DNA of 50,184 nt. It comes from a virus. Lineage: Duplodnaviria > Caudoviricetes. The stretch is taken from the IMG/VR virus record IMGVR_UViG_3300027874_000015, positions 1-50,184 of that record; one strand, written 5' to 3'. Every line of letters starts with the position of its first letter. The first letter of the stretch is position 1. The position numbers and the translations under genes were made by a program. Shown one piece after another: positions 6,568 through 39,366 of this stretch. A model generated the notes under the pieces. That model made no database searches and was not told the DNA's origin. It was given only the letters and a program-made list of their open reading frames with translations.

Positions 6568-6807
6568 CTAGGTCTCCGTAGCTGAAGTTTCGGTGGCAGC
6601 CTGCTCCACGTAGAAAGTCCTCGTCTGATCGTAGTGAGCCGATCCTGTCTGAATTGGTGGCAACGTGCCCGGCTGCGCCCCGCCAAACCCCGGCGTGACG
6701 TAGATCGGCGTGTTGCTGGCAAGGTTGTACTGAGACAGGTAAAGCTGGCCCGGAGCCGGTGTCGGTAGTTGGTAAGGACGTACGGCGTCGTCGATGCCAC
6801 GTGACAT
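6568..6807 (-). CDS. Small tail-associated protein
   Basis: 79 aa, tightly packed in tail operon. Confidence 0.55.
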   Translation of the reverse strand: MSRGIDDAVRPYQLPTPAPGQLYLSQYNLASNTPIYVTPGFGGAQPGTLPPIQTGSAHYDQTRTFYVEQAATETSATET

Positions 6808-6811
6808 GGTT

Positions 6812-21849: not shown

Positions 21850-22058
21850 GCGATCTCGCAAACCCTCCTGTGAGCTGCGTCAATCACTCCCGGGATGTCA
21901 TTGCGGGGAACGGGATCTGGAACGCAAAGACCCGGGACGATGCAGATCGTCTCGCCAGGCGTGGCGCCGCAGATGATCTCTTCGAACGTGCCAGTGACGG
22001 TGCGCACGCCACCCCTGATATCGACCACGCCAGCGACCAGCAGGTCACCGTTTTTCAT
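21759..22058 (-). CDS. Hypothetical protein
   Basis: 99-aa ORF filling the gap in the operon; overlaps both neighbours. Confidence 0.4.
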   Translation of the reverse strand: MKNGDLLVAGVVDIRGGVRTVTGTFEEIICGATPGETICIVPGLCVPDPVPRNDIPGVIDAAHRRVCEIAWHKLSLRTRRLLLGLSPPTTSLPATPSSC

Positions 22059-22704
22059 ACGCGGCCCAGAAGGTTTCCTTCTGCATCCAGCCCGGCGCTA
22101 CCGCCTCATCGAGCACGCCGTGCTCGATCTCACGGAAGCCGGCATCAAGGATCATGCGGTTGACATCGAGGCCATCATCAGCCCACTGGCCGCCTTCGAC
22201 CGGCACACAACGATTCCGGTTGTTGCAGATGAAGAAACTGGCCTCGCGCTCCAGCCGCAGGCGGATGCGCTCGATGTCGTCGTGGACGTTCAGACAGTGC
22301 TGCAGCGCCCACACTGAGATCGCTGCGTCGAACAAGCAGTGACCTGTAAAAACGGTCTCCAACACTTCCGGCGAGATCGCAGCGAAGGCATTGCTCTCGA
22401 CCAAACTTGCCGCGAGCCCGCGCATGTTCGGCGAGATATCGACACCGATCACTGAGCAGTCGAGCTGCATGATCAGCGGCTTGGCGAGGCGCCCGACACC
22501 GCAGCCATAGTCGAGCACCAGCGAACGCGGCTTTACATAACGCTTGATGATCTCCATCAGCGCCGGGGTTTCCTTTTCCCAACGCTCTTTGACGCTGAGC
22601 CCTTCGGTCGGGCACAGGATGATCTCGGCGGCCTGATCGAGGTTCTCGATGTCGAGATACCGCCGTGGATCGTATGCGACCTGCTTGGTTCCCGGCATTA
22701 GCAT
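22045..22704 (-). CDS. Class I SAM-dependent methyltransferase
   Basis: VLDYGCGVGRL motif I, VIGVDISPNM, FDAAISVWALQH. Confidence 0.85.
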   Translation of the reverse strand: MLMPGTKQVAYDPRRYLDIENLDQAAEIILCPTEGLSVKERWEKETPALMEIIKRYVKPRSLVLDYGCGVGRLAKPLIMQLDCSVIGVDISPNMRGLAASLVESNAFAAISPEVLETVFTGHCLFDAAISVWALQHCLNVHDDIERIRLRLEREASFFICNNRNRCVPVEGGQWADDGLDVNRMILDAGFREIEHGVLDEAVAPGWMQKETFWAAYEKR

Positions 22705-23463: not shown

Positions 23464-24144
23464 CTACGTAAGTTGGTCCTTCCAAGTGAACAAAATCGAA
23501 TCGTTGTTGTTCAACGCGATGCCGGCAAAATCCGCATGCGCAAAGCACGATCCGCCTTTTGCTGTCGTGTTGGCGTAGGTTGCAGTCTGGCCGCCCAATG
23601 AGGCATTGGTGGCTGCAAGCCCATCGGCGCCCGAGGTCGCCGTAGCGCCAATAGCGTGAGCCGCGGCCGCAGAACCCAACTGCGCGCGCACCACCGTGAG
23701 AGTGGAGGCGCCCTGGCCGGCGGTCACCAATTGAACTTCGTTCTCAACCTGGATGTAAAAGTTGCCCGACGCAGGGCCAATGGTGGCGCCCAGCGTGATC
23801 GTCGTGGCGCCCGACGCCTGCGAGGCCGAGGCGATGGTTGAGGTCGACGCAGCGGTCGTGGTGTCAAAGAGCCCAGCCTCTGTAATGGTTTTGCTGTTGG
23901 TGGCGGTGATGGTCCCGGTCACTTGGTAGGTGTCGGCAAGATAACTGGTTGAGACGAGAGAACTGACTCCGGCAACACGCGCTTCGGTCTGCGGACCGAA
24001 CAGCGCCACGTCGGAGTTGGCTGAAGCAGTGGTCGCACCAGAACCCCAGCCAATATTTTTCGGCTCGGTCGGCGAGCCCGCCGCCTTGATGAATGCCCAG
24101 ATCAAAGAACGTCCGGCGAAAGTCGCAGTTGCAACGTTAGCCAT
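23464..24144 (-). CDS. Virion structural protein (collar/fibre-base-like)
   Basis: IGWGSG...TITEAGLFD...IALNNNDSILFTW pattern; A/T/S-rich; GGAGG RBS. Confidence 0.6.
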   Translation of the reverse strand: MANVATATFAGRSLIWAFIKAAGSPTEPKNIGWGSGATTASANSDVALFGPQTEARVAGVSSLVSTSYLADTYQVTGTITATNSKTITEAGLFDTTTAASTSTIASASQASGATTITLGATIGPASGNFYIQVENEVQLVTAGQGASTLTVVRAQLGSAAAAHAIGATATSGADGLAATNASLGGQTATYANTTAKGGSCFAHADFAGIALNNNDSILFTWKDQLT

Positions 24145-25504
24145 CGCAAGCCTCCTTGTTTCGACGGCGGTCGACTTTGTCGAACAGCTCGTCACGGACT
24201 TGCTGCATCACGCTCCTCCAATCGTCAGTTTTGTCCTGGCGATACAGACGCAGCGACGGATACCAAGGACTATCGGATCTGTCGGTCATCCAGACCCAAT
24301 AAGGGTTTTTGCAAAGCACCACCCACGCCGGCACGCCCAGCGCGCCCGCGAGGTGAGCGATCGACGTGCAGCAGGTGATGACGAGGTCCATTTGCAGCAG
24401 CGCAGTGGCAGCGACCAGCAGTCCGCGCTCCCCGAGTTGCGGACCGAGATCGCAAACAAGATCATGCGCACCAAGACGTTCAATGTCTCGCTGCCCAGTT
24501 CCGACTTGCAGCCCGTACAGCCAAACATGCGGGTGCTCGGCGAACCGCAGCATCAACTCCAACGGAATCGAACGTTCTCCATTGCGGTCCTGCGCCGGAT
24601 TGCCGGTCCAGCAGATGCCGACACGAAACGCGTCGGGCCCCAGCGGGCGAGGCACGTTTGCTGGCCCCATCATCATCTGCTGCAAGGTCCTCGACTTGAT
24701 CAGACCAGGGTCCAGCGGCAGGTTTTCCAACGTGGCGCGGTAATGCCAGGGCAGCGAGCCCATCACCACCGCGTAATCGCATGGCGGGATCGGCGTGCCC
24801 TCGGGGACGTAGGACACTGCGCCCGATGAGATAAACCCCCACAACAGCACCGCCACCTGATGCGAGCAGCACATGTAGACCCGCCCGCCGAGCCCGACTT
24901 GATCAGACAGCCAAAGCAGGAAACGGGAAAACAGGATGGTGTCGCCGATACCCTGCTCGACACAGACGAAAAGCATTTTCCCCCGCAGATCCTCACCGGC
25001 CCAGTACGGAAAGGTGAACTTCGGATAAAGCGGCTTGCCCTCTTTTTGTCTGAAGGGTATCCGCGCCTCGTACTCCTCGAAACCACGAGCATAGTCTCCC
25101 AGCGACAGTCGCATCATGCCGCGGCACCACTTGGCGTTCAGATAATCGGGGTTGAGCGCCAGCGCCTGCTCGAAGCATGACTCCGCCAGATCGTAATTGC
25201 CGAGGTTTTCGTGGATTAGCGCTTTGTTGTGGTACGCCTCGGCGAAGTTCTGATCCATGCCGAGCGCGCGATTGATGCAGGCCAGCGCCTCTTCATAGTC
25301 CCGCTGGCGCCACAGCAACGTCGCCAGATTGCTCCACATCTCGCGCGAGTTGGGCTGCACCGCGATGGCGCGCTTCATCTCGACGGTGGCCACCGCAGCA
25401 TGGCGGTAGTCCTGCCCGCGCATCAACGCGATATCGTTCAGCTCCTTCACCGCCTCGTGCACGGGGCGGTAGACCTTCGCTTTGGGCAGTTGAATAACAC
25501 TCAC
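24137..25504 (-). CDS. TPR-repeat glycosyltransferase (GT9-like C-terminal domain)
   Basis: N-terminal TPRs (AEAYHNKA...ALALNPDY); EQGIGDTILFSRF; VGICWTGNP; MDLVITCCTSIAHLAGALGVP; SPWYPSLRLYRQ. Confidence 0.9.
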   Translation of the reverse strand: MSVIQLPKAKVYRPVHEAVKELNDIALMRGQDYRHAAVATVEMKRAIAVQPNSREMWSNLATLLWRQRDYEEALACINRALGMDQNFAEAYHNKALIHENLGNYDLAESCFEQALALNPDYLNAKWCRGMMRLSLGDYARGFEEYEARIPFRQKEGKPLYPKFTFPYWAGEDLRGKMLFVCVEQGIGDTILFSRFLLWLSDQVGLGGRVYMCCSHQVAVLLWGFISSGAVSYVPEGTPIPPCDYAVVMGSLPWHYRATLENLPLDPGLIKSRTLQQMMMGPANVPRPLGPDAFRVGICWTGNPAQDRNGERSIPLELMLRFAEHPHVWLYGLQVGTGQRDIERLGAHDLVCDLGPQLGERGLLVAATALLQMDLVITCCTSIAHLAGALGVPAWVVLCKNPYWVWMTDRSDSPWYPSLRLYRQDKTDDWRSVMQQVRDELFDKVDRRRNKEACDG

Positions 25505-27466: not shown

Positions 27467-27533
27467 GGTTATTACCTCCTATCCATGCATGCGTCGTTCG
27501 GCATCAACGACGTTGGTTGACGGGAATGGGTGA

Positions 27534-28013
27534 TTACTTCGTGGAGATGTTTCCGACGCGCAGAACAGCGAGCACCGGCGTGCCGGCGCTGCCGGCAGCG
27601 GTCGTCATCCAACGCGCATTGGGGTAGGTGGTGCCGGCAATTCCGAACTTGCCGGTGGCCGCTTCGAACACAACAGAAGCCGTCGCCGGGGAGACACTGG
27701 CATAGGCATAGACCCAGATGTCGCCCTTGGTGAGCACGCCCGCATTGTCATACTGGGAGTACTTGTCGACAGTGACGCCCACCGCCTGCGGCAGCGTAGT
27801 GTCGGCGCGGGTGACACCCACCGGGTTGGAACCGCCGATGACGCAGCCGTCATCGTTGGTGCCCTGGCTCACCGCGAGCCCGAAGCCGATCCCGGCCGCG
27901 GTTTCGACGATGCGGGAATCGCCATCCCAGTTGACCTCGTCGGCGAGCATGCCGTTCTGGGCCACCGGCTGATAGCGAGGGTAAGTCGACTGAAGGGGTG
28001 CAGGTTGCAACAT
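27534..28013 (-). CDS. Capsid decoration/cement protein
   Basis: IGFGLAVSQG...GVLTKGDIWV; between the protease-scaffold and major capsid genes. Confidence 0.75.
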   Translation of the reverse strand: MLQPAPLQSTYPRYQPVAQNGMLADEVNWDGDSRIVETAAGIGFGLAVSQGTNDDGCVIGGSNPVGVTRADTTLPQAVGVTVDKYSQYDNAGVLTKGDIWVYAYASVSPATASVVFEAATGKFGIAGTTYPNARWMTTAAGSAGTPVLAVLRVGNISTK

Positions 28014-28043
28014 GGCTCAATCCTTTCTGTTTGTTGCAGTGAA

Positions 28044-30857
28044 TTACGCGCGGCCCATCTTCCAGGCTTCGCTGAGCTGCTTGTTGCGCTCGGCGTAAGC
28101 CGCGTCCCTGATGGCCTTGATGTCGGTGCCGCCGCCGCCGAACTGCAGCCCGGAAAGGCTGTCGGCGAGCCGGTCGGTGCCGGTCTTCGGCTTGATGGTG
28201 GAGGCGATCACCTTGAAGGCGCCGCTGATCTCGCCGTCCGACATCGTGCGCACGGCATCACCGAGCTGCGAGGTGACGACGATGCGACGGATGTCCGCCA
28301 GCTCCTTGCCAGTGAAGTCGATCTTGTTGTCGGTCGCCGCTACTGCCTTCGACACGACTTCCAAACGTTCCTTGACGGCGGCATCGATCGCTGCCGGGCC
28401 GCTTGCCGCCTTGGCGTCTTCGAGCTGCTTCTTGAGAACGGCGATCTCGCCCTTGAGCGCGTCATTCTCACCGCGGGTTTTCTTCTCTTCCTCCTGCTCT
28501 TCCTCGGCCTCGTCGGCTTTCTTCTTGGCGTCGGCAAGGTCCTTGGTGATCTTGGTGATGAAGGTCTGCACGTAGTTCGCAGCGGCCTCATCACCGAAGT
28601 CCACGCTGCGACCATCAATGAGAATCCTAACAGTCATGGCGGTATCTCCTTTGCCATCGTCCCCGATTTTCAATTGCGATCCGCCTCTGGCAGCGGGGAC
28701 AACCGCCAAATGGTTTCCTCGGATACGAGTCTGGATTGCGTCATAGGTTTCGCCGCTCGGCGTCTTGCCTTTCTCCCATTTGAGATCAGTCGAATACCCC
28801 ACCGACAATTCGCGCACCCCGAACTTTTCATACGCCTCGATGGCGCGAGCGTCGGTAATCATCATCGGAATGCGCACACAGTCGCCGTCGCGAGATACTT
28901 CGTCGCCGGTATAACCGACCGCGTATTCTTTCCAATTGCCCGCATCCACCATGATGGGGGGGTGATCGAGCGTTACTGGCTTGTGCGCCAAGCTTTTCAG
29001 CGAGCGGTGTGAAAACACTTCCTCCGGCGGGCGATAAACCCGCACGATACTCAGATCCGGGCGACCAACCTCGGTGCCGCCGTACTCCTGGATACCGGTC
29101 CTTGAAATACGCGCCGAAGCGACCAGATATCCGTCCTTGGTCTTGCGTGGCTTGCCGTCGAAGACGACGTCGACTCGATCGTTCAGCGAGATGCGTGCGG
29201 CATCTTCGAGATCCTCGTCGTCATCGTCATCTTCATCCGGATCAGCATCTTCGACGTACCCAGAACCACCGCAGGTCGGGCACTCGTCGCCGTCATCATC
29301 CTCGCCGGTGCCACCGCAGGTGGGGCAGGTATCGTCCGCGTCGGTGGCGGCCCAGTCGAGTTGCAGCTCGCGCATCTTAGCGATGCCGCCCATGATGACG
29401 CCGTCATCGTAGAGCGGCTGGTTGCTCGGATGCGACGCATCCCAGTTCTCCGGCAGCATTTCGGTGGCGCCGAGCGCGCGGGCGCGCTTCTTGATGTGAG
29501 CCTTCGCTGCTGCCTTGTTGCCGGCGCGACCGAATGCGCGAATTGCGTTAGCGAGATCACCCTTGTTCTCGATCGGAAAACCACCGCCGGGCATCGCCTT
29601 GCCCGACTTCGCCAGCTCTTTGCGGCGTTCGGCAGAGAACTCTTTGTCCATGCCGTCGCCGTGCGAACCCCATCTCCTGGTGTGGCCGTAGGCCTGCACG
29701 TGCGCCTGCTTCCAGCCCGGCGTCTGCACGCGATAGCCGCCAACCCACTCACTGGCCTTGCCGCGCTTCTCTTTTTCCTTCTTGCGCGCGGCCCGCGCAG
29801 CTGCGGAGGCTTCACGTGCGGCTTCCGACCATGCGTCCGTGCGCATATGCCTATCCTTTGCTGATTTGTGCCCCTTGCCGCCGGTGAAATCCTCGGCGGC
29901 GTAGAGCAAAGTGACGATGTCGGTATCGACGCGGCGGACGTTCATTCGCTTGTCGTCGGCGAGCACGTTGTCGCGTGCATCGATGCCGACGCGCGCCGCC
30001 CATGAGTGGTGTCCATCGAGAATGTAATTGTCCCGGCTCACGACGATCGGCCGATCCATCAGCTTGGCCGCAGCCTCGGGGTCGTAACCGAACTTGCCTT
30101 CACCGGTTTCCAGGAAATGCGCCTGCAGCGCGACCTGCGATCCCTTCAATTCATTCTGCGTCGCGCGCAGATGCGAGGCGTATTCCTGATCCTCACTGAC
30201 TTTGTAACCACGTCCCTGCATCCATTTGACGAAGTCCGCGGCGTCACCGGGCTTGCCATCATCGGCGAGCTGCGGCATCTGCACGCGCGGTATGCCGATC
30301 GACTCGGCGCAGAACAGGTTGGTGCCGGCCACCGACACGTTGCAGAGATCGAAGTTCGGTGCCTTCTCGCCGCGCGCAATAGCTTCCTTAGCAATGGCGC
30401 CGAGACGATCGAGCAGCGTCGCCACCTCACGGGGCTGATTCAGTTCGACCTTGCGGTTCTCGTACAGCGCACGCGCGGCATCATCGACATTCGAAGTGTG
30501 GATTACGCCATGCTCGTCGACGCGGGCTTCTGCCGAATAACCTTCGCCAGGGTGATTGTGATTGGCGCCGTGCTGCCACGTCTCACTGGTCTCGCCGCGC
30601 TCCGCACCGCCACTGCCGCCGCCTGAAGTCCATTTGCCCTGGGGATCGCGCGGTTGATCGGGATCGAACGCGTCTTTGGCGACCCACTTCTCGCCCTTCT
30701 TGCGGTAGCGCTTTTTCGTGGCTGCCCAAGCTATTTTGTGCGCCGTCTCCTCACCGTATTTCTCAACGGCGGCGTTGAACGCTGCGGCATAGATGCGTTG
30801 GCCGTGCTTCGGCACGTGCTCGGTACCGCTCGGTATCTGGCCCTTTGCATACGGCAT
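28044..30857 (-). CDS. Multi-domain prohead protease/scaffold: ChaB + ParB-like + small domains + Zn finger + DUF2213 + coiled coil
   Basis: MPY...IYAAAFNAA...AHKIAWAATKKRY (ChaB); ATQNEL...PIVVSRDNYILDGHH (ParB/Srx-like); GYLVASARISRTGIQEY...RELSVGY...NHLAVVPAARGG (DUF2213); GAGGTG RBS before ATG at 30857. Confidence 0.8.
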   Translation of the reverse strand: MPYAKGQIPSGTEHVPKHGQRIYAAAFNAAVEKYGEETAHKIAWAATKKRYRKKGEKWVAKDAFDPDQPRDPQGKWTSGGGSGGAERGETSETWQHGANHNHPGEGYSAEARVDEHGVIHTSNVDDAARALYENRKVELNQPREVATLLDRLGAIAKEAIARGEKAPNFDLCNVSVAGTNLFCAESIGIPRVQMPQLADDGKPGDAADFVKWMQGRGYKVSEDQEYASHLRATQNELKGSQVALQAHFLETGEGKFGYDPEAAAKLMDRPIVVSRDNYILDGHHSWAARVGIDARDNVLADDKRMNVRRVDTDIVTLLYAAEDFTGGKGHKSAKDRHMRTDAWSEAAREASAAARAARKKEKEKRGKASEWVGGYRVQTPGWKQAHVQAYGHTRRWGSHGDGMDKEFSAERRKELAKSGKAMPGGGFPIENKGDLANAIRAFGRAGNKAAAKAHIKKRARALGATEMLPENWDASHPSNQPLYDDGVIMGGIAKMRELQLDWAATDADDTCPTCGGTGEDDDGDECPTCGGSGYVEDADPDEDDDDDEDLEDAARISLNDRVDVVFDGKPRKTKDGYLVASARISRTGIQEYGGTEVGRPDLSIVRVYRPPEEVFSHRSLKSLAHKPVTLDHPPIMVDAGNWKEYAVGYTGDEVSRDGDCVRIPMMITDARAIEAYEKFGVRELSVGYSTDLKWEKGKTPSGETYDAIQTRIRGNHLAVVPAARGGSQLKIGDDGKGDTAMTVRILIDGRSVDFGDEAAANYVQTFITKITKDLADAKKKADEAEEEQEEEKKTRGENDALKGEIAVLKKQLEDAKAASGPAAIDAAVKERLEVVSKAVAATDNKIDFTGKELADIRRIVVTSQLGDAVRTMSDGEISGAFKVIASTIKPKTGTDRLADSLSGLQFGGGGTDIKAIRDAAYAERNKQLSEAWKMGRA

Positions 30858-30919
30858 CGTCACCTCGCGTGTGTTCCAGGCGCGGTACAACCATTGCAAA
30901 AAAGAGCCCTTGGCCCCCT

Positions 30920-30948
30920 CTTGCAAACTGGAAGATACTTCCTATATT
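30920..30948 (+). promoter_or_regulatory. Promoter P1 with palindromic operator GGAAG-ATA-CTTCC in the spacer
   Basis: cTTGCAA-N16-TATATT; near-identical copy at 32561. Confidence 0.75.
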
Positions 30949-30970
30949 AGGAGTGTAGAAAGGAAACCAA

Positions 30971-31048
30971 ATGTTCCCCGTCCTGATCGTTCTCGCTTCG
31001 CTCATTGGCGCCAGCTACGTCGTTCTTAGCGACGGCGGCGCCGCCTAA
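30971..31048 (+). CDS. 25-aa hydrophobic peptide (MFPVLIVLASLIGASYVVLSDGGAA)
   Basis: GAAAGGAAACCA RBS directly after P1; below the ORF-track cutoff. Confidence 0.55.
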   Translation: MFPVLIVLASLIGASYVVLSDGGAA

Positions 31049-31054
31049 CAGAAA

Positions 31055-31184
31055 GCGTTGCGCATTGAGGCCCACGGGCCTCCTTGCAGAGCGCTTGCTA
31101 AAAAGATCACCGGCCCCGCCAGTTCGGGACCAAATGAAACGCCTGTCGGCCTGTAGTGAGTCCGGCGAGTGGCGGCGGCTGGTG
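31055..31184 (+). ncRNA. Two long imperfect stem-loops (structured leader/processing element)
   Basis: gaggcc-cacg-ggcctc with extended stem (31055-31094); caccggcc/ggctggtg, ccgcca/tggcgg, ggac/gtcc stem (31108-31184). Confidence 0.45.
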
Positions 31185-31202
31185 AAACTGAAAGGAAAAA
31201 AC

Positions 31203-31427
31203 ATGGCTAGGATTAAAGGTGAGGAACTGAACACATTGCGCATTGCAATGTTTGAGACTTTGAAGGTGCACAACCTCCATCCGTTCATGGTCCAGAATGA
31301 GGACCACGCGTGGCAAGTCTATACTAAAGCGCGGAATGAAGGCCGCATCGCGGACTACCACAAGAAATATACAGACGCCCACCTAGCTACAGCCTTCAAG
31401 CAGATATTCAAAGCTGTGCGCGGCTGA
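31203..31427 (+). CDS. Small hypothetical protein (cassette)
   Basis: 74 aa after GAAAGGAAAAAAC RBS. Confidence 0.75.
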   Translation: MARIKGEELNTLRIAMFETLKVHNLHPFMVQNEDHAWQVYTKARNEGRIADYHKKYTDAHLATAFKQIFKAVRG

Positions 31428-31445
31428 ACAATGAAAGGAAACCAA

Positions 31446-31703
31446 ATGACCAAACGCAAATTCGAAAGCCATGACATCATGGTTTGTATCGACTGCGGCT
31501 TTTACTGCGCCAACGGCATGCCCGACGAGCACGAGCCCTCATGGTCGCCCGACAAGTTCGGGAGCCTGTGGGAGAAGGACTGGGACATCGTCAACGGCGA
31601 CAGCGACAAGGACGACGAGTTCTCGTCAACGCCGTGCGAGAGCTGCGGTTCGCGTCTGGGCAGCGCCCGGATGCACTGCGTAGCAATGAAGGAGATCAAG
31701 TGA
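31446..31703 (+). CDS. Small acidic Cys-rich protein (cassette)
   Basis: CIDC and CESC pairs; GAAAGGAAACCA RBS. Confidence 0.75.
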   Translation: MTKRKFESHDIMVCIDCGFYCANGMPDEHEPSWSPDKFGSLWEKDWDIVNGDSDKDDEFSSTPCESCGSRLGSARMHCVAMKEIK

Positions 31704-32104
31704 TGGAAATCAAAATCACCACGTTCTTTCACGACGGCGAGCATGCCGACTTTTCGGCGAGCCGCATGGAAATGGGCAATGACGCAGCACGGATCACTTG
31801 GGCGAACGCCAAACGTGAAGCCGAAACCACCGTGCTGCTCCCGAACGAAGACGCGCTCGACGCGTTCCGGGCCTGGATCAAGGAGTTCGGTGCCTGGGAC
31901 GAAAAAGAGATCGCCTCATGGTCCCCTGTCGAGTGCAACGCGCTCCTGATCCAATTCATCAACGGCAACATCCGCGAGCTGCCCACCGATGACGACGGCG
32001 AGATCGACTGGGACAAGGCCGAACGTCTCGCCAACGAAGGCACCATCGCCGGCAACATCTATCGCGGCGATGATGGCGAAATCTACTTCTACATGGGCAA
32101 TTGA
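31703..32104 (+). CDS. Small acidic protein (cassette)
   Basis: 133 aa, TGATG coupling, AAGGAG RBS. Confidence 0.75.
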   Translation: MEIKITTFFHDGEHADFSASRMEMGNDAARITWANAKREAETTVLLPNEDALDAFRAWIKEFGAWDEKEIASWSPVECNALLIQFINGNIRELPTDDDGEIDWDKAERLANEGTIAGNIYRGDDGEIYFYMGN

Positions 32105-32115
32105 AAGGAAACCAA

Positions 32116-32538
32116 ATGAGCATCGACTACGGCATGGGCCGCACCAACATCGACACCGAAACCGGTATCCGGTACGGCGTGATCTCGCAGAACGATGTCA
32201 TGCAAGCCTGGGCGGACAGCTCGGAGCCAGTGTACCCGGAAATGGACAACACCGACACGGACAACGCTGACGAGGATTGTGAACCGATTGGATGGAAATA
32301 CGAGGACGACGGTTATGTTCTAGTCGACTGCCTCGACAGTGATATCATGGTGATCAAGAGCCCGTACTACACGTTCGCGGATTTCTGCTCGCCATGCGTC
32401 CCGGGCGCCGGCAACTTGAACAGCGACAATCCGGACGGCATCAAAACCTACTGCCTCGGACACGATTGGTTCGAGGACGGCAAAGCGCCCTACCCGGTGT
32501 TTTCCATCGCCACCGGCGAGCCTATCAACAAAGACTAA
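32116..32538 (+). CDS. Highly acidic small protein (cassette)
   Basis: 140 aa, D/E-rich, FCSPCVPGAGNL motif; GAAAGGAAACCA RBS. Confidence 0.75.
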   Translation: MSIDYGMGRTNIDTETGIRYGVISQNDVMQAWADSSEPVYPEMDNTDTDNADEDCEPIGWKYEDDGYVLVDCLDSDIMVIKSPYYTFADFCSPCVPGAGNLNSDNPDGIKTYCLGHDWFEDGKAPYPVFSIATGEPINKD

Positions 32539-32541
32539 CAC

Positions 32542-32561
32542 GAGGCCCCTTCGGGGGCCTC
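32542..32561 (+). terminator. Stable UUCG-tetraloop hairpin (terminator or stabiliser)
   Basis: gaggcccc-ttcg-ggggcctc; weak U tract. Confidence 0.55.
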
Positions 32562-32589
32562 TTGCATTCTGGAAGATACTTCCTACATT
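32561..32589 (+). promoter_or_regulatory. Promoter P2 with the same palindromic operator
   Basis: cTTGCAT-tctGGAAGATACTTCC-TACATT. Confidence 0.75.
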
Positions 32590-32611
32590 AAACTAGACGA
32601 AAGGAAACCCA

Positions 32612-33019
32612 ATGAACCTCTATCGCAACGAAGGCTCCATTGCCAAATTCAACGCCCAGCGCAACTTGTCGGGCCGTACCCACTACGTCGATGACGACAC
32701 CCTGAAATGGCACAAGTCGCGCGTCCTGTCAGCGCGCGCTACTGATAACGGCTTGCTGTTCGCCATCGTCACCAGTGACGCGCTCGACATGCACAACACC
32801 AAGCGCGGCTACCGGTTCGTGATCTTCGACCTGTTCGGCCACGTGCTGGAACGGCCCGACCTGGAGAACACTTTCAGCTCTTCCCGCGCCGCCGAAAAGG
32901 CAATGTGGAAAGCGCTCAACGCCATCGACGCCAAAGCGCATACTATTAAGGCCATCGCCGAGTCCCGCAAACACTACGCCGAGGAAATGGATCGGCTCGA
33001 AGAGGAGGTAAACAAATGA
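32612..33019 (+). CDS. Small hypothetical protein (cassette)
   Basis: 135 aa, first gene after P2, same RBS motif. Confidence 0.75.
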   Translation: MNLYRNEGSIAKFNAQRNLSGRTHYVDDDTLKWHKSRVLSARATDNGLLFAIVTSDALDMHNTKRGYRFVIFDLFGHVLERPDLENTFSSSRAAEKAMWKALNAIDAKAHTIKAIAESRKHYAEEMDRLEEEVNK

Positions 33020-33213
33020 AGTATTCAGTCCGCTGCGGCTATCGCACCGATGGGGGCATGCTCACCTCGGCCCCCACCCACTTCGACACCGTCATTGTCG
33101 AAGCTATTGATCCCACTGAAGCACGCATAAAGGCCATCCATGTCCTGTACGCCAAGCATCAGCAACCGAATCTCTCTCACGTCCAGCCCGGCAAACCAGT
33201 CGAGCTGAAATGA
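33016..33213 (+). CDS. Small hypothetical protein (cassette)
   Basis: 65 aa, GGAGG RBS, ATGA overlap. Confidence 0.65.
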   Translation: MKYSVRCGYRTDGGMLTSAPTHFDTVIVEAIDPTEARIKAIHVLYAKHQQPNLSHVQPGKPVELK

Positions 33214-33238
33214 CCGACAACCCTGAAAGGAAACCACC

Positions 33239-33514
33239 ATGGGCTTGGCCAAATACCGCAGCGACAAGGCCACCACGCAATCGGACGGCGCCATCCTGTG
33301 GCACGCCCACTGGATGGGCGGCCCCAGCCTCGCCAAGATCGAGAACTGCCGGCTGTCAAACCTCGTCGGCGACATGCGCGCCACCGTGTATGTGCAAGGC
33401 GAGCCCGACACCTACTTCTCGATCCCCGCCAAGTGCTACCTCGGCGGCAAGATCATCACCGGCTACGTCACCAACGACGACGGCCTGCTGGTGTTCCGAC
33501 ACTGCTACTACTGA
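33239..33514 (+). CDS. Small hypothetical protein (cassette)
   Basis: 91 aa, GAAAGGAAACCA RBS. Confidence 0.75.
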   Translation: MGLAKYRSDKATTQSDGAILWHAHWMGGPSLAKIENCRLSNLVGDMRATVYVQGEPDTYFSIPAKCYLGGKIITGYVTNDDGLLVFRHCYY

Positions 33515-33526
33515 AAGGAAACCAAC

Positions 33527-33730
33527 ATGAACGATCTGATCCTGCGCAACCACGGCTCGATCTGCCTGTTGTGCGCCATCACGCCTGCCGGCCAGGACTG
33601 GCTTGACGAGCACATCTGCCAGAACGACGAGACGCAATACTGGGGCAAGGCCATCGTGGTCGAACCGCGCTACGTCGAGCCTATTCTCACCGGCGCCGTC
33701 AATGACGGCCTGAAAGTCCAGATGAGGTAA
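33527..33730 (+). CDS. Small hypothetical protein (cassette)
   Basis: 67 aa, GAAAGGAAACCA RBS. Confidence 0.75.
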   Translation: MNDLILRNHGSICLLCAITPAGQDWLDEHICQNDETQYWGKAIVVEPRYVEPILTGAVNDGLKVQMR

Positions 33731-33736
33731 ACCACC

Positions 33737-33880
33737 ATGCCCCGTTCAGAATTGCGCAAGCTTGCCGAGGACCTTTATGATCTCAACATCAACAAAGACC
33801 CGAACACGATGCTGAACGCCGTGCTCAGCATCCGCAGCGCCCTTCTGAGGGTGGTGCGCCACCTGGAGCAAAAAGAATGA
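33737..33880 (+). CDS. 47-aa helical protein (MPRSELRKLAEDLYDL...)
   Basis: GAGGT RBS; ATGA overlap with the HTH gene; below the ORF-track cutoff. Confidence 0.6.
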   Translation: MPRSELRKLAEDLYDLNINKDPNTMLNAVLSIRSALLRVVRHLEQKE

Positions 33881-34077
33881 CCCCACGCGAGCTGGAGCAA
33901 GCCCTGGAGCAACTGCGCATGTCCGATATCACCTTCGGACAATTGATCAAATACGACCAGCGCTCGGTGCGCTCCTGGCGCTCCGGCCAGTATCCCATCC
34001 CCTACCCGGTGGCCGTGCTCGCAAGGCTGCTCGTCACCGGCAGGATCACCACCCAGGACGTAAAGGAAACCAGATGA
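33877..34077 (+). CDS. XRE-like HTH regulator (Aca-like)
   Basis: MTPRELEQALEQLRMSDITFGQLIKYDQRSVRSWRSGQYPIPYPVAVLARLL; last full gene of the cassette. Confidence 0.75.
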   Translation: MTPRELEQALEQLRMSDITFGQLIKYDQRSVRSWRSGQYPIPYPVAVLARLLVTGRITTQDVKETR

Positions 34078-34100
34078 GCTACGAATACATGACACTAACG

Positions 34101-34128
34101 ACGGCCCCTTTAGGGGCCGTTTTCTTTT
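34101..34128 (+). terminator. Intrinsic terminator closing the plus-strand cassette
   Basis: acggcccc-ttta-ggggccgt followed by tttctttt, at a convergent gene junction. Confidence 0.7.
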
Positions 34129-34313
34129 AGCCCGAGCGCCACCAGCTGGGCTGGAGTAAGACCGGCGCGCCGCGCCACCGCAAGCCCGATCTCGCGCGCA
34201 CGTTTCTCGTCGCCGGCCGCCAGGATCGGCTCGTGCAGGTTCCTGTCCTGCAGCGGCGCACCCTTCTTCAGGTAAAAGAATTCCTTACTTTTTCCGCTTG
34301 GCGACGTAGGCAT
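34110..34313 (-). CDS. Small protein overlapping the end of the MuF fusion (possible partner/immunity)
   Basis: 67 aa, 29-nt overlap with the upstream gene. Confidence 0.55.
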   Translation of the reverse strand: MPTSPSGKSKEFFYLKKGAPLQDRNLHEPILAAGDEKRAREIGLAVARRAGLTPAQLVALGLKENGP

Positions 34314-37300
34314 TGAACCGATCCATCGTTTCCTTGTCTTTCAAGTTCAACTCACCGTACCAATCCGAATTGAGCAGCAGCTCCTTGCCGCGCTTGGAAT
34401 CGGCAATCGCCCACACCGCCTTCGGATCACTGCTGTGCGCCAGCGCCAGCAGTCCCTCGCGGGTATCCTTGTCGACCTCGACCTCTTCTTCATCTTCCTC
34501 CGGCTCGTATTCGATCTCCGGCAATACACCGTTGCGATCCGCCCAATTGAAACGCTCATGATCGCCCAAACCGTCCCAGTATTCACGCTGGTACTCACTG
34601 ACGTTCTCGCGGATGTAATCCGGCGGCTCGGTGTCGGCGGCATTGCTCTCCGCTTCGGCGTTGAACTTCTTGACCAGCGCTGTCTCGATGTGAGACCGCA
34701 TGTCCTCGGTCAGATATTCGTGCGGCTTGACCGGCTCGAACCCCGGCAACGTGCCCTGCGCCGGCACGTAGCCCTTCGGGTTCGTCAGCTTATCATCGTT
34801 CCAGGTGATGTCAGGATCGGCGCGGCCATCACCATAACGATCGCTGTACGTCATCTCGATAGCGTCGAGCAGCTGCTTGTCATCGAATGGAATCGGCTTG
34901 TCCGACCAGTCGCGTGCCTGATCGAGCGCATCATGCGCCCACAGCCCGGCGATGGTGCCACCCTGACCGCGCTCATCAAACACACCGGCCAGATCTTCCT
35001 TGGCTCTGTGCAGCGCATCTCCACTGTCACGCCAGTTCTCGATCTCACTGTCAATGAATTCTGACTCAGTCTGACGCATGAACTCGCGCTCGACCTCGTC
35101 CTGCTGGTCCGAACTCATTTCGTCCCAGCTGCCAGGATACTCGCCGGAGCCGCCGCCGCTGCGTCTGCCGCCACCCGTTAAACGCCGCTCGATCTTGTCA
35201 CTCAGCTCTGACCACGAGCCACGTGTTGGCACGTAGCCATACTTGGCCCAAGCGTAGCCGCCGACATCGATGTTGGCGTGGACCGCGACCTTGTCGAGCC
35301 CGAGCTTCTGGTACATCGCGACATTGGCAGCGAGCATTTCCTTGCCAATATTGTGGCCCTGTTCGCTACCGTAAAGCTTGAAGTATTCCGACGACGCCTT
35401 GTTCTTGTCGAGATCGATCTTGCGCACATACTCACCGATTGTCCTATTGCTTTCGCTGAGCAGGTTGCCTTGAATGTGCAGGGTGTTGTCGTATTCCTGG
35501 TATCTGATCCCCATCGTGCTAGGCAACCCGCCGAGGAAATCGTGCTTGAACTGCTCAGGTGGCATGTCGACCTTGTCATTCCACTGCTGCAGAAACTTCT
35601 CTTGCCGCTTCGGATCGGATCGCGTCGACGAATCGATGGTGACATCGGCTTTGACGAAGTCGGAAATCTCAGCCTTTTTCTTGGCGCCGATCTTGGCCAG
35701 CGCGCGGACGTATTCAGGCGCCGCCGCGCCGCCAGACGGCCCCGACGTGAACTGGCCGCCTTCGGGCGATCCGCCGGGGAGATGATAGGGATTGAAATCT
35801 ACAGATTGCCAATCGCGCGCGCCTGAGCGAGGATGAAGTCCGCCTTCGCCTGGGTCAGACCACTCCGCCCGCGGTAGCTCTCCCCGATGATCTTGCGCTC
35901 TTCCGCCGTGTACCGCGAGAGATCGACTGCGCTGTTTGGCGGCGTCCCAATCAGTTTCGCGGTGGTCGGTGATTCTGACTTCATCCCATCCATCACGGCC
36001 CATTGCCTTCTTGATAGCAGCGTCCCGGCCGCTCGCCGGCCAGCCTTTCCAAGCCATGAATACCACATCCGGCTGGTCCATTCCAGGCTTGTACCAGGGC
36101 GCAAATTCCGGATTGAACGTCATTCGCCCAGTTTCTTCGAACCCGAGCTGGTGATAGAAATTGTTCAAGTGACCATCATAGCAATCCAATACGCGGCCCC
36201 CGCGATCAATGGCAGCCGCCATTGCCAATGCACCGGCACCCTTCGGCCCTCCATTGTTGAACACGTTCTGAATATCGCCATCCGGCGAAACAGCGGCGCC
36301 GACCGTGTGATCAGCATTCATGAGCAGCGTATGGTTCTTCAAATCCTCGGCCGTCACATGGCTGAGAAATTCCGGCCGTGAACTTTTATCGCGGGCAGCA
36401 ATGAATCCGACTGCGTCATTCGTGGGTGAAAGATAGCCACCACCGGAAGTCCACCGCCCGCGCGGGTCCCTCGGTTCATCCGGAGGCCCGGCATCACGCA
36501 CCGTGCCCGCCCGTACGAACGTGCACCGGCAATAATTGTGGGCTGGAATCAGCCCCTCGGCCTGGGCCAGCGTGTACGGTCCATCGTCGGCGATTTGCTC
36601 GCAGCGCGGACAGACCTCGTCGTCGCCGGCTGTGAGCACGTCGACACGCCGCGGCAGGACCTTCTTAAGCTTCCGCGACACTGCCTTGATGCGGCGCACG
36701 GTGCGCGCCGACGTTCCACCGCGCGAGCCGGGCCCGGTTTTACGGGGCGCATCGCTAATGGGGAAAAGTCCCTCGCCGGCTCCGTCTTTTCCCCATTGGC
36801 GCACTCGCTCAGGCACGAGGTCGACGTGGGTGGCACCTAGGTTGCGCAGCGCAACCAAAGTGGCCGACGCATGAGCTTTTGCCACAACGAACGCCGCCAT
36901 CGCCCGGGTGCGATTGCGCATTTCCCAGATGATCGGCACCAGGGCGTTGGCTGTGCAGTAAGGGGGCGAACTGCACGACAGGTGATGCGCCACCGCCCGG
37001 GTGAGTTGCTGTTCTGCAACACTCGCGATCCCGCGCAGCTCCGAAACGGCCAGCGCCTGGATTGCCTTAATTCGACTTGGATCGGCGATACCGCCAGCCG
37101 CGCGCTGGGCCTCCCTGGATGCGTTTTCCACAAAAGGGGCTGTCCAGGTGCCGTCGAACCCCAAAAGCTTCTGTCCGACCTCGCCTCGCAGCCAGGAAGC
37201 CCACCCCTCGACCTTGTTCTCGTGCGGCAGCCGGCCGACCCCTTTCAACCCCAGCAGGTCGTGCTCGATCAGTGCCTGCCGGATCGTCTGCGCCAGCAGC

Positions 37301-37443
37301 CGCCAGCGCCGATCACCTTCGGCCCGGAACCGCGCTTCGAGGTAGTGCACCGCCTGCCCGCGCGGATCGCGTGCCGCTCGGTCATAAACCACCTGGACAG
37401 TAACAGGCGCCCGCGGTCCGCACATGCAGAGGTTCATGTTCAT
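34285..37443 (-). CDS. MuF/SPP1-gp7-like minor head protein fused to two GNAT-like domains and an acidic region
   Basis: TAGDDEVCPRC...IPAHNYCRCTF (MuF C-terminal motif) shortly downstream of the portal; GAGALAMAAAIDRGGRVLDCYD...FYHQLGF and QGHNIGKEML...ANIDVGGYAWAKYGY GNAT-like motifs. Confidence 0.75.
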   Translation of the reverse strand: MNMNLCMCGPRAPVTVQVVYDRAARDPRGQAVHYLEARFRAEGDRRWRLLAQTIRQALIEHDLLGLKGVGRLPHENKVEGWASWLRGEVGQKLLGFDGTWTAPFVENASREAQRAAGGIADPSRIKAIQALAVSELRGIASVAEQQLTRAVAHHLSCSSPPYCTANALVPIIWEMRNRTRAMAAFVVAKAHASATLVALRNLGATHVDLVPERVRQWGKDGAGEGLFPISDAPRKTGPGSRGGTSARTVRRIKAVSRKLKKVLPRRVDVLTAGDDEVCPRCEQIADDGPYTLAQAEGLIPAHNYCRCTFVRAGTVRDAGPPDEPRDPRGRWTSGGGYLSPTNDAVGFIAARDKSSRPEFLSHVTAEDLKNHTLLMNADHTVGAAVSPDGDIQNVFNNGGPKGAGALAMAAAIDRGGRVLDCYDGHLNNFYHQLGFEETGRMTFNPEFAPWYKPGMDQPDVVFMAWKGWPASGRDAAIKKAMGRDGWDEVRITDHRETDWDAAKQRSRSLAVHGGRAQDHRGELPRAEWSDPGEGGLHPRSGARDWQSVDFNPYHLPGGSPEGGQFTSGPSGGAAAPEYVRALAKIGAKKKAEISDFVKADVTIDSSTRSDPKRQEKFLQQWNDKVDMPPEQFKHDFLGGLPSTMGIRYQEYDNTLHIQGNLLSESNRTIGEYVRKIDLDKNKASSEYFKLYGSEQGHNIGKEMLAANVAMYQKLGLDKVAVHANIDVGGYAWAKYGYVPTRGSWSELSDKIERRLTGGGRRSGGGSGEYPGSWDEMSSDQQDEVEREFMRQTESEFIDSEIENWRDSGDALHRAKEDLAGVFDERGQGGTIAGLWAHDALDQARDWSDKPIPFDDKQLLDAIEMTYSDRYGDGRADPDITWNDDKLTNPKGYVPAQGTLPGFEPVKPHEYLTEDMRSHIETALVKKFNAEAESNAADTEPPDYIRENVSEYQREYWDGLGDHERFNWADRNGVLPEIEYEPEEDEEEVEVDKDTREGLLALAHSSDPKAVWAIADSKRGKELLLNSDWYGELNLKDKETMDRFNAYVAKRKK
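35799..35984 (-). CDS. Possible nested out-of-frame small protein within the MuF fusion
   Basis: MKSESPTTAKLIG...YTAEERKII...LTQAKADFILAQARAIGNL reads as an amphipathic helical protein where the main frame looks like linker. Confidence 0.4.
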   Translation of the reverse strand: MKSESPTTAKLIGTPPNSAVDLSRYTAEERKIIGESYRGRSGLTQAKADFILAQARAIGNL

Positions 37444-37537
37444 AGCCGCACGTGCCAGTACAGGTTATGGCGGCACGCGCAGGGACCGGTCCGCCAGCCG
37501 ATGCGCTGAAAGTTCGCGCGCCACCACTCGAACCGGA

Positions 37538-37795
37538 TCACAGCGGCAGACCCATCGGGATCGGATGCGGCACGCCGTCGACGTACAGCACGGCCTGCTG
37601 CTTGCCGATGATGGCGCGAAACGTGTGCTCCTCGCCGCTCCCTGGCTTGATCTCCAGCGGCCGCGTCGGCCCGTTGGGATACAGCAGCAGTGAAACGTTG
37701 CAGTTGTTCTCGACTGCGTAGCCCACCGCGATGTAAGCCATGTCGCCAGGATGCGCGAACACGAACGCGCACAATGTGCCGATGATAGTGAACAT
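37538..37795 (-). CDS. Hypothetical protein
   Basis: 85 aa, TGATG-coupled to the portal gene. Confidence 0.5.
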   Translation of the reverse strand: MFTIIGTLCAFVFAHPGDMAYIAVGYAVENNCNVSLLLYPNGPTRPLEIKPGSGEEHTFRAIIGKQQAVLYVDGVPHPIPMGLPL

Positions 37796-39366
37796 CAGCC
37801 TCCCACTGGTCCTGAGTGATCAACGTCTTCAGGACCGGGCTCGGGTTCAGGCGGCGTCTGCGGCCCCTGCGTGCCACGCCCCGGCATGAAGCCGCCGTCA
37901 TCGTCGGGCATCTCAGGTTCGGCGCCGAACTGCTCGATCGCATCGTCGAGACCTGGGTAGGTCCCGTCCTCGATCAGCTGATTGACGACACCTTCACGCA
38001 GCGCGTCCTCGTTGACAATCCCCAGTGACACGTAGATTTGCGTGGCCTGCGCCTTGGTCAATGCCATCTTGGCCTTGTCCTCGGCCTTCATCTGCCACAG
38101 CGGATTCCATTCGTAGTGGATGTTCGGATCTTCGTACCCCAAGGCCGAGCGCATCAGACATTGATCGAGCATGCCCATGCGCGGCGACATCTCGTTCTTC
38201 TGATCCTGAGCGCAGTTGTCGAAATAGTTGGCGCGGTCGTCCTCGCCGCCCGAGGTCGTCCCCGACTGCAGCCCGCGCCCGGTCGCCTGCCCGAACAGCA
38301 CCGACACCGGTATCTCGGCTGCAGCAGACACCACCGTGATGAATTCGTGCAGGATCATCGGCAGGCCGCCATACTGGGTGGCGACACGCTCCCACTCTTC
38401 TTCACGATCGAGCAACAAAGCCGAGATCACGCTTTTACTTTGTGCCGACATCGCAAAGCGTGACAAGAGTCGATCTTTGTATTCCTGGTTCGTCACGCGA
38501 TTGGCAAACTCGGGGATCTTGATGATGTCGAGCTTGCCGTCGTTCACCATCGCGGCGATCGACTGGTTGATCTGGGTGAACTGCGCCATCGTGTCGACGA
38601 CGGTCTGCAGCACACTGTCGCCCCAGCCGGCACCCATCTGCGCCAGCCGCCAGTCCGGCAACTCGTTGCCGGGCATTTCCAGGACTCTCGACGGATGGAT
38701 CTGTGTCATGCCGACCACCACTGGCGGCATCGACACGTTGCTCATCATGGTCTGCGCGCTTCTCTTCAGCGCGACAACGTTCTGGTTGAGCGCGCCGGGC
38801 ACCGCGTTGGTGCCAGGGCTGGTCACACCCATCTCGCCGGCAAAACCAAACATCGGCGTGGAAACCGTGTAGTAAGCCGGCCGCGTATAGTAAGGATCAT
38901 TGACGTTGTAAATTCGGGGCCCGGCATTCAGCTCGTAGCGGTGCAAAACAACAACGTATTTCAGGCAGCCCTTTTTGCAGCGATCCAAATCAATCGGCTC
39001 ACTGGGATCGTTACCGTCATCGACGCCGATCACCAGCGCAGCGCCACCGTACAATCGCGCCTTGGTCAACCAGTCCTTGGTCTTGCGCTTGATGTCGAGC
39101 GTTTTCTCGACCGCCTCGATCGCCTCGATCTGCGCCTGATTGGCCTGCCATGCGCGCCATTCCCGCGTCATGTCCTTGGCCGGCGCATTGACGATCTTCC
39201 TGGCGAGCCAGTCGCCACGGTAAAGGTTTTCTAAAGTATTTCTATCCAATAAACTAAGGTAATACTGAGTTGCCACGTTGGGGTCGATACCGAGCTGTCC
39301 TAAGCCGGTTATTAAATTTCTTAGGGAGTCGTATGCTTGTCTGACGTACCCCATGCTATGCTCCAA
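37795..39366 (-). CDS. Portal protein (DUF1073 type)
   Basis: LYRGDWLARKIVNAPAKDMTREW, ARLYGGA, IHPSRV, WGDSVLQ, IPVSVLFGQ, YEWNPLWQM. Confidence 0.9.
   Translation of the reverse strand: MEHSMGYVRQAYDSLRNLITGLGQLGIDPNVATQYYLSLLDRNTLENLYRGDWLARKIVNAPAKDMTREWRAWQANQAQIEAIEAVEKTLDIKRKTKDWLTKARLYGGAALVIGVDDGNDPSEPIDLDRCKKGCLKYVVVLHRYELNAGPRIYNVNDPYYTRPAYYTVSTPMFGFAGEMGVTSPGTNAVPGALNQNVVALKRSAQTMMSNVSMPPVVVGMTQIHPSRVLEMPGNELPDWRLAQMGAGWGDSVLQTVVDTMAQFTQINQSIAAMVNDGKLDIIKIPEFANRVTNQEYKDRLLSRFAMSAQSKSVISALLLDREEEWERVATQYGGLPMILHEFITVVSAAAEIPVSVLFGQATGRGLQSGTTSGGEDDRANYFDNCAQDQKNEMSPRMGMLDQCLMRSALGYEDPNIHYEWNPLWQMKAEDKAKMALTKAQATQIYVSLGIVNEDALREGVVNQLIEDGTYPGLDDAIEQFGAEPEMPDDDGGFMPGRGTQGPQTPPEPEPGPEDVDHSGPVGG

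Follow-up and report, generated by a model that had tools for sequence, protein, structure and literature searches.

What is an inverted block of small genes doing inside the head module of a tailed phage, and how is it controlled? This question is raised by IMG/VR virus record IMGVR_UViG_3300027874_000015, the whole of which (50,184 bases, a partial phage genome) was analysed and is called the window here. Between two head genes on the minus strand, 11 open reading frames (ORFs) run on the plus strand from 30971 to 34077, the last of which encodes a helix-turn-helix (HTH) protein. A preliminary description of the sequence had likened them to an anti-CRISPR (acr) operon with its anti-CRISPR-associated (aca) repressor gene and had proposed an anti-defence or host-takeover function. 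We consider it fairly probable that the block is a mobile accessory operon organised in two promoter units, autorepressed by an Aca1-like HTH protein and carrying cargo that probably serves host takeover or counter-defence.

The encoded proteins comprise 25, 74, 85, 133, 140, 135, 65, 91, 67, 47 and 66 amino acids (aa), and their genes are tightly packed or overlapping, apart from gaps of 154 nt behind ORF1 and 73 nt behind ORF5. As previously stated, several are acidic: the isoelectric point is 4.73 for ORF3, 4.27 for ORF4 and 4.05 for ORF5, and counts of aspartate plus glutamate versus lysine plus arginine are 28 versus 12 in ORF4 and 28 versus 7 in ORF5. The AT skew turns to about +0.2 across 31001-34000. 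With up to one mismatch, the ribosome binding site (RBS) motif GAAAGGAAACCA is found seven times in the window, always within the block (chance mean 0.10), and a promoter-plus-RBS unit of 57 nt is present in two copies of 81% identity. The opposite strand and the lack of Pfam matches might suggest an assembly artefact or chance antisense frames. This is refuted by contigs of metagenome run X3, possibly the source sample, which cross both block junctions with 0 differences (27500-31160 and 31131-38000), by the seven RBS motifs and by full-length homologues of ORF4, ORF5, ORF6, ORF7 and ORF11. Among the cassette variants listed (n = 25), 14 fall on third, 6 on first and 5 on second codon positions. 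In the following, G denotes relative viral genomes, L viral loci and X metagenome runs.

Promoter P1 (30920..30947, plus strand, CTTGCA-N16-CTATAT) and its second copy P2 (32561..32588, plus strand, CTTGCA-N16-CTACAT) were identified by promoter-pattern search and conform to what we take to be the rhizobial-type RpoD consensus. The promoter core occurs twice in the window, at 30921 and 32562 (chance 0). Across the window and three relatives, the rhizobial-type pattern returned four sites, namely P1, P2, the cassette promoter of relative G001 and one unrelated site, and an exact promoter scan of viral contigs gave 0 matches. The perfect palindrome GGAAG-ATA-CTTCC immediately precedes the -10 box in P1 (operator 1, 30930..30942) and in P2 (operator 2, 32571..32583, identical); these are its sole two perfect copies in the 50-kb window. 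Unit 1 ends in a G+C hairpin predicted by folding (32542..32561, plus strand), which overlaps the start of P2, and an intrinsic terminator hairpin recognised from sequence and fold (34100..34121, plus strand) closes the cassette. The promoters, terminal HTH gene and closing terminator named in the preliminary description are thus all present. The hairpin upstream of P1 (30894..30926, minus strand, -19.7 kcal/mol) resembles the one before P2 and, with its U run on the minus strand, is a possible weak terminator for head-gene read-through. A match of the Rfam L2 leader at P2 (E 0.079, below gathering) was taken as chance.

The palindrome has the geometry of an Aca1 operator, which an excerpt of PMC8633003 gives as GGCAC-N3-GTGCC (inverted repeat IR2, ATTAGGCACAATGTGCCTAAT). 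In the half-site GGCAC, according to the same excerpt, Arg47 reads G4, Arg44 reads G5 and Val45/Tyr48 read A7, with a smaller contribution from the cytosines (PMC8633003). The window operator keeps the 5-3-5 shape and the G, G and A, with both C changed.

ORF11 (33877..34077, plus strand), assigned by PHROG and by profile comparison with the PDB, is a 66-aa Xre-type HTH protein with an Aca1-like recognition helix and a predicted autorepressor. As a single sequence it gave weak Xre HTH matches in the PDB (HigA2, E 0.31; Aca2, E 0.38), Aca1 being absent up to E 10. A profile of the five-member family ranked HigA2 (E 3e-4), Aca1 (1.5e-3) and Aca2 (2.9e-3) at the top of the solved structures. The match to Aca1 spans 46 positions and aligns R29 and R32 of ORF11 to Aca1 R44 and R47; V45, Tyr48 and Arg59 of Aca1 are not kept. 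When three more distant HTHs were added, the wider profile placed Aca2 first (E 1.4e-5), limited to Aca2 residues 1-54. ORF11 shows no significant full-length similarity to Aca1, and at 66 aa it lacks the C-terminal dimerisation domain that follows the HTH in Aca2-type proteins of 115-125 aa. The hallmark of acr-aca loci, a small HTH gene terminating an operon of small genes, is present. Judged from its sequence, ORF11 is predicted to work like an Aca protein and is assigned here to neither Aca1 nor Aca2. Exact-word searches with ORF11 returned ORF11 itself or G001 and nothing in bacterial genomes, and the HTH profile found no match in five partial relatives (G006-G010).

Moreover, the HTH family is paired with GG-N9-CC palindromes in five other phages: G001, Bradyrhizobium phage ppBeUSDA76-2, G012, G018 and G019. 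G001, at 73 kb the closest complete relative (capsid 82%), has a smaller form of the cassette in its early region, a 1.2-kb unit that encodes homologues of ORF11 (50%) and ORF7 (55%). The promoter of this unit, CTTGAC-N16-CTATAT, holds TAGGCA-N5-TGCCTA, the arms of which equal those of Aca1 IR2 and which sits in the same register as in the window; in Aca1-operator terms the site is GGCAA-N3-GTGCC. Among 50,697 phage records, ORF11 matched ppBeUSDA76-2 alone (35%, E 4e-9); in this phage a two-gene unit ending in the HTH gene is preceded by TAGGGC-N5-GCCCTA together with a second, degenerate site. In G012 TAGGCC-N5-GGCCTA lies directly after the HTH gene. In the DNA examined of these three phages, one perfect site each was found where 0.07, 0.005 and 0.04 were expected. 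A promoter-operator pattern search returned 22 viral loci, of which the five promoter-like ones were tested. In both complete genomes among these, the HTH gene lies downstream of the site and on its strand (G018, E 1.3e-14; G019, E 7e-6); three further pattern matches, in partial genomes, gave none. The G018 gene, with R-x-x-R-Y-Y at the recognition helix, closes a long series of co-oriented genes 9 kb downstream of the site and is followed by a terminator; the G019 gene follows nine small genes. The inverted repeat lies within the core promoter in P1 and P2, and in the same register in G001, G018, G019 and ppBeUSDA76-2. The acr-aca-like regulation put forward in the preliminary description is supported by the Aca1-type palindrome in both promoters, the Aca1-like recognition helix and the pairing in five other phages. 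Two further sites were observed: a 9.6-kb fragment (L127) with no HTH in view carries TAGGAA-N5-TTCCTA at a CTTGAC promoter (4001-4028), and in G001 (C1:33377-33400; L031 13377-13400) the cassette RBS precedes a two-codon frame, ATG ACC TAG.

These features suggest the following course of events. Upon entry of the phage DNA, host RpoD polymerase would fire P1 and P2, presumably early, and the strong common RBS would give rise to ten small proteins in a burst. As the last product of P2, ORF11 would then dimerise on both palindromes and block the polymerase. In the available part of PMC9410906, Aca proteins are shown to block polymerase from their operators, with the inverted repeat in the core promoter, and an excerpt of PMC13551039 describes Aca-regulated genes as mostly unannotated and one Aca protein as able to control several operons. 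Genes may be exchanged at boundaries marked by the recurring RBS and hairpins, and late head-gene transcription would run against the block.

The cargo itself bears no familiar names. No cargo ORF matched Pfam at E up to 0.1, and the PHROG matches of the block, the HTH excepted, are families of unknown function. Weak NCBIfam matches of ORF6, ORF7 and ORF9 (E 0.025-0.14, far under the cut-off) were treated as noise. The earlier remark that the cargo is unrecognised thus stands for Pfam, PHROGs and NCBIfam. ORF4 (31703..32104, plus strand; phrog_24784, E 2e-27), a mainly helical acidic protein of 133 aa, belongs to a family of 38 clusters found at 67 viral loci. ORF5 (32116..32538, plus strand), 140 aa and likewise acidic, belongs to a large conserved family of 1508 clusters with a C-S-P-C-x-P-G motif, its top matches sharing 60-70% identity among themselves. 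C91, S92, P93, P96 and G97 are invariant and C72, C94, C113 and H116 near-invariant, the conserved Cys/His residues suggesting a metal site. The models of ORF4 and ORF5 (predicted local distance difference test 93.9 and 92.5) gave no Foldseek match to solved structures at E <1e-3 and best VIA Z scores of 3.9 and 2.9, which is no proof of new folds. Both are small and highly acidic like the DNA mimics Ocr and ArdA; the Foldseek and VIA matches list no Acr, Ocr or ArdA, and no likeness to Ocr or ArdA in fold or sequence is listed. BFVD matched ORF5 to a single viral protein without a name (E 2.6e-5), the profiles of ORF4 and ORF5 met a designed zinc finger and a designed repeat among PDB sequences, and the ESM Atlas gave no usable match for ORF5.

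The remaining cargo genes are all on the plus strand. ORF1 (30971..31048) is a 25-aa hydrophobic peptide preceded by the RBS motif and without family, and ORF2 (31203..31427) a basic 74-aa protein with a weak phrog_2603 match (E 0.016); a 140-aa version of ORF2 starting at 31135 was rejected on the grounds of the RBS motif at 31188-31202 and of a 1-nt insertion at 31154 in X9. ORF3 (31446..31703, 85 aa, phrog_3034, E 1e-6) has six Cys, is likely zinc-binding and adjoins an ORF4 homologue in L045. ORF6 (32612..33019, 135 aa) shares 51% with gp057 of Rheinheimera phage Barba19A; its ESM Atlas leads, DUF7447 (fold) and Nmad4, stayed under threshold, and an 'alnB' label on a homologue was disregarded. 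The 55% homologue of ORF7 (33016..33213, 65 aa) follows the HTH gene in G001, and ORF8 (33239..33514, 91 aa) has a homologue adjoining an ORF5 homologue in L002. ORF9 (33527..33730, 67 aa) has weak homologues in Citromicrobium and Rhodobacter phages, and ORF10 (33737..33880, 47 aa) is absent from one soil variant.

Cultured phages carry ORF4 and ORF5 homologues in runs of small genes, within 3.2 kb of the record end in Salvo, XacN1 and XaC1; those of ORF4 are found near the genome ends of Xylella phage Salvo and Xanthomonas phage XacN1. Other cultured cargo homologues belong to Rheinheimera, Rhodobacter and Citromicrobium phages. The arrays of Salvo (genes 1-8) and XacN1 (ORF001-024) resemble the window block as co-oriented runs of small hypothetical genes with ORF4 or ORF5 homologues; unlike it, they lack an ORF11 homologue in those records and do not lie inside a head module. 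Of 557 ORFs called around ORF4 and ORF5 homologues, 142 were selected and scanned together with four from G001, and these 146 proteins included ArdA, three DUF932 families, a C5 methylase, DUF2786 and a radical SAM protein. ArdA, DUF932 and DUF2786 are markers of first-entering DNA. The neighbours support an early conflict context and name no function. A survey of repeated RBS motifs at the 67 ORF4 loci yielded no general rule; L077, L088, L089, L096, L100 and L101 carry short motifs repeated 10-23 times near the ORF4 homologue. In L001 (3000-10100) an ORF5 homologue stands in an array, with DUF932, DUF2786 and radical SAM neighbours, in which many genes start with the upstream motif CAAGGGAGGTAGCTATG and similar spacers.

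Several observations weigh against the explanation we favour. Regarding the regulator, Aca proteins were matched by ORF11 alone at E 0.38 only, the core profile places HigA2 above Aca1, and Tyr48 and Arg59 are lost. Regarding the operator, the loose motif GGxA-N5-TxCC-TA, taken alone, is no rarity, averaging 0.37 per shuffled window with a maximum of 2, and in G018 and G019 only the extra pairing and the downstream HTH are independent evidence, since the site cores were built into the search pattern. In G012 the operator follows the HTH gene and no cassette was seen, L044, L051 and L069 have an HTH match and no perfect site, and a weak HTH match near E 1e-7 occurs without an operator in one of five other genomes (G026, E 3e-7). 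Because operator-less HTH matches occur and the loose motif is common, the G019 pairing rests on position. Regarding the cargo, no Acr or other named family was found in Pfam, PHROGs or NCBIfam, libraries that are without some Acr families, none of the 146 neighbour proteins is an Acr, and ArdA stands beside an ORF4 homologue at one independent locus (L057/L058, 99.96% identical). Furthermore, the G018 operon encodes an AAA-ATPase, a vWA protein and DUF3150 and resembles a general early operon.

The G018 operon, under a like operator, also points to a more ordinary function: the block may be an early or host-takeover operon with cargo for replication, metabolism or host-range fitness, its HTH being an early-gene repressor. 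That the G001 cassette is embedded in the early region and that cargo homologues are scattered in small-gene arrays of unrelated phages would fit this as well, whereas no replication or metabolic family is matched by the cargo, and fast exchange combined with an Aca1-type switch appears typical of conflict genes, as an excerpt of PMC13551039 suggests. We regard such an operon as possible, yet rather doubtful.

The opposite extreme is a true acr-aca operon, in which at least one cargo gene would be a new anti-CRISPR and ORF11 a diverged Aca1. The Aca1-type operator and recognition arginines, the small acidic cargo, the G001 operator arms identical to Aca1 IR2 and a position between head genes that parallels the Mu-like acr locus (in the accessible part of PMC3993853) speak for it. 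Acr matches are lacking in the cargo, the 146 neighbours and the sister operons, which share with the window ORF7 alone, in G001; the insertion site is not conserved, and the ORF5 family, with 1508 clusters and 60-70% identity among its top matches, is more conserved than we take Acr families to be. A true acr-aca operon is thus unlikely in our estimation. For the preferred reading, a mobile accessory operon under an Aca1-like switch, we see about an even chance, going by sequence, that at least one cargo gene is anti-defence, and a low one that a true anti-CRISPR is among them.

Compared to acrIF1-aca1 of Pseudomonas phage JBD30 (Aca1; PDB 7C0G, 7FA3, 7VJM, 7VJN), the block shares a strong promoter, small cargo genes, a 5-3-5 palindrome with GG..CC ends beside the -10 box (the JBD30 box read from the sequence printed in the source excerpt), a terminal HTH with two guanine-reading arginines and insertion between head genes. 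It differs in its operator (GGAAG versus GGCAC), in the remote HTH (profile E about 1e-3) without the Aca1 loop insertion, Tyr48 and Arg59, in its ten cargo genes in two promoter units, none of them a known Acr, and in its inverted orientation to the virion genes of a non-Mu phage with a likely alphaproteobacterial host, at a site that is not conserved. With Aca2 operons (PDB 7EZY, 7VJO, 7B5J) it shares the first rank of Aca2 in the wider HTH profile, whereas the operator printed in the available part of PMC9410881 is unrelated to the window palindrome. As with Aca1 and Aca2 in the excerpt of PMC13551039, one regulator would serve several promoters and RNA hairpins stand between genes. HTHs of Xre antitoxins of the HigA2/MqsA type are the best single-sequence and core-profile PDB matches (HigA2) or weak model matches of ORF11 homologues (MqsA); in contrast to these, ORF11 has no antitoxin domain and no adjacent toxin, and all matches are under curated cut-offs.

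A structured non-coding element of about 135 nt with two hairpins (31050..31185, plus strand) occupies the gap after ORF1 and folds far better than shuffled sequences (z = -4.59). Rfam gave no match over 31050-31185 at E up to 10. A 52-nt core (31120-31171) reappears in X6 and X9 with a different left flank, and in X9, on one contig with loose ends, both new flanks are mutually complementary, so that the closing stem is replaced yet kept. A pattern search for the core returned six viral and two genome matches, all unrelated or in coding DNA, and blastn of phages with the core gave nothing below E 2. The element was not accepted as a hammerhead, stems I and III being unable to form, nor as a CRISPR-repeat mimic, since X9 has a different sequence in place of the hairpin's 5' arm. 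In the available part of PMC13551039, the RNA hairpins bound by Aca proteins, located in 5' untranslated regions and between genes, are much smaller; the Aca1 RNA motif there measures roughly 20 nt, far less than the window element.

The location between head genes had been offered as support from Mu-like phages. The analysis does not support this argument. Pfam scans of the head module gave the order terminase (T4-type), Phage_portal_3, a 1052-aa gene in MuF position, DUF2213 protease, cement and DUF2184-type capsid, and by these families the head is not Mu-like. The best cultured capsid matches are mostly Rhizobium phages (45-47%); together with the promoter type and the Bradyrhizobium homologue, this points to a host probably among the Alphaproteobacteria. 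In an excerpt of PMC3993853, the Mu-like acr locus holds one conserved position between a Mu G homologue and the protease/scaffold gene. Both flanking genes were present in seven of 21 capsid-related loci (L006, L008, L011, L012, L013, L015 and L019), none of which has a cassette homologue at the head-gene junction at E up to 1e-3 or, in its ORF list, an inverted small-gene run there, and the G001 cassette lies in the early region. In G002 about 33 kb of early genes (C1:10437-43770) separate the MuF-position gene from the protease gene. The junction tolerates insertions and is not a fixed acr locus. L013 has at this place a single inverted lysine-rich gene of 159 aa with its own upstream hairpin (6543-7022, minus strand), and among the G002 early genes is an ORF that, by eye, resembles a tyrosine integrase.

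This last ORF bears on whether the block is a lysogeny moron transcribed from the prophage, acting for example in superinfection exclusion through the 25-aa membrane peptide and kept low by the HTH. The own promoter and terminator, the opposite strand, the hydrophobic ORF1 and the HTH unit of ppBeUSDA76-2 also agree with a moron. Against it stand cargo homologues in Salvo, XacN1 and Barba19A, which we take to be lytic phages, and the expectation that a strong autorepressed promoter would be nearly silent in a lysogen; the window also comes without its early region. We judge a moron quite improbable. A recorded contig of 72,230 bases also encodes window proteins, which leaves about 22 kb outside the window; this missing part is probably the early region.

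Mobility, a part of the accessory-operon explanation, is indicated by soil variants. Soil metagenomes contain DNA near-identical to the window, and in low-depth contigs of four other studies (X6-X9) matches stop at 30956, 32538, 32585, 32597, 33877, 34077 and 34113, all of them boundaries of promoters, RBS or genes; a joint in X8 (33713>33877) omits ORF10. Loose ends are also present within genes, and contigs of this sort may derive from more distant phages, for which reasons the evidence that soil variants swap genes at cassette boundaries with repeated RBS or hairpins is graded as suggestive. X6 and X7 contigs connect the terminator region with the flanking large gene, and the right-hand end of the cassette seems to stay in place in close strains from other soils. 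A near-perfect RBS copy after the HTH gene, called the twelfth (34061-34130), opens an 18-codon frame only (34074-34130), which may be the scar of a lost gene since the ORF7 homologue of G001 sits in the corresponding slot.

As to the flanks, the protease/scaffold gene named in the preliminary description was confirmed (28044..30854, minus strand; Pfam DUF2213, 1e-51; ChaB, 2e-14; phrog_530) and lies outside the cassette. It encodes a head maturation protease of 936 aa in which DUF2213 is preceded by N-terminal ChaB, a CxxC zinc motif and further fused domains; this extension differs among relatives. The other flank (34285..37443, minus strand), a 1052-aa head gene after the portal with a long variable extension, did not bear out its description as MuF-like in Pfam or PHROGs: no MuF model matched, and the label therefore rests on position and on an H-x-x-C-R-C motif that we presume to be characteristic. 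A small virion-strand gene that is not cargo (34110..34313, minus strand), placed between this large gene and the cassette, had been missed; 12 of its 12 listed variants are at third codon positions, and its 51% homologue in G018 follows the same large MuF-position gene. MuF polymorphic toxin-immunity pairs offer a parallel for the large gene and its small neighbour, and in relatives the MuF-position gene or its neighbour carries ADP-ribosyltransferase, NUDIX, ParB or intein domains. Elsewhere amid the virion genes, ORFs at 22045-22704 and 24137-25504 (minus strand) appear, read by eye, methyltransferase-like and TPR-glycosyltransferase-like.

Acr-aca-like cassettes are a kind already known. 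We found no literature account of an ORF11-type regulator clade and none tying Bradyrhizobium phages or ppBeUSDA76 to anti-CRISPR, the literature linking Aca1 with Bradyrhizobium being unrelated. In the accessible part of the Aca hidden Markov model supplement of PMC9410906, 'Bradyrhizob' is absent and the first 'rhizobi' and 'alphaproteo' rows stand in the Aca6 sheet. The available portion of PMC13551039 places the Aca1 RNA-motif clusters in hosts of the Pseudomonadaceae, Moraxellaceae and Burkholderiaceae; Bradyrhizobium, rhizobia and Alphaproteobacteria are mentioned 0 times in the main text. It is a tentative proposal, on which we would not insist, that ORF11 represents a hitherto undescribed clade of Aca1-related regulators in phages of rhizobia and other Alphaproteobacteria, that the operator TAGG-xy-N5-y'x'-CCTA could be a bait for a whole pool of novel anti-defence genes including ORF5 and ORF4, and that the RNA element belongs to a functional RNA family not described before. 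The operator series GGCA, GGAA, GGGC and GGCC, set beside the changes in one recognition helix, forms a compact case of repressor-operator co-change. For two candidates, ORF4 and ORF5, the models are confident and solved structures include no relative. The search for new anti-defence proteins relies chiefly on Aca genes and operators as bait, and a related switch in phages from soil, one of them cultured on Bradyrhizobium elkanii, leads to a testable list of candidate genes.

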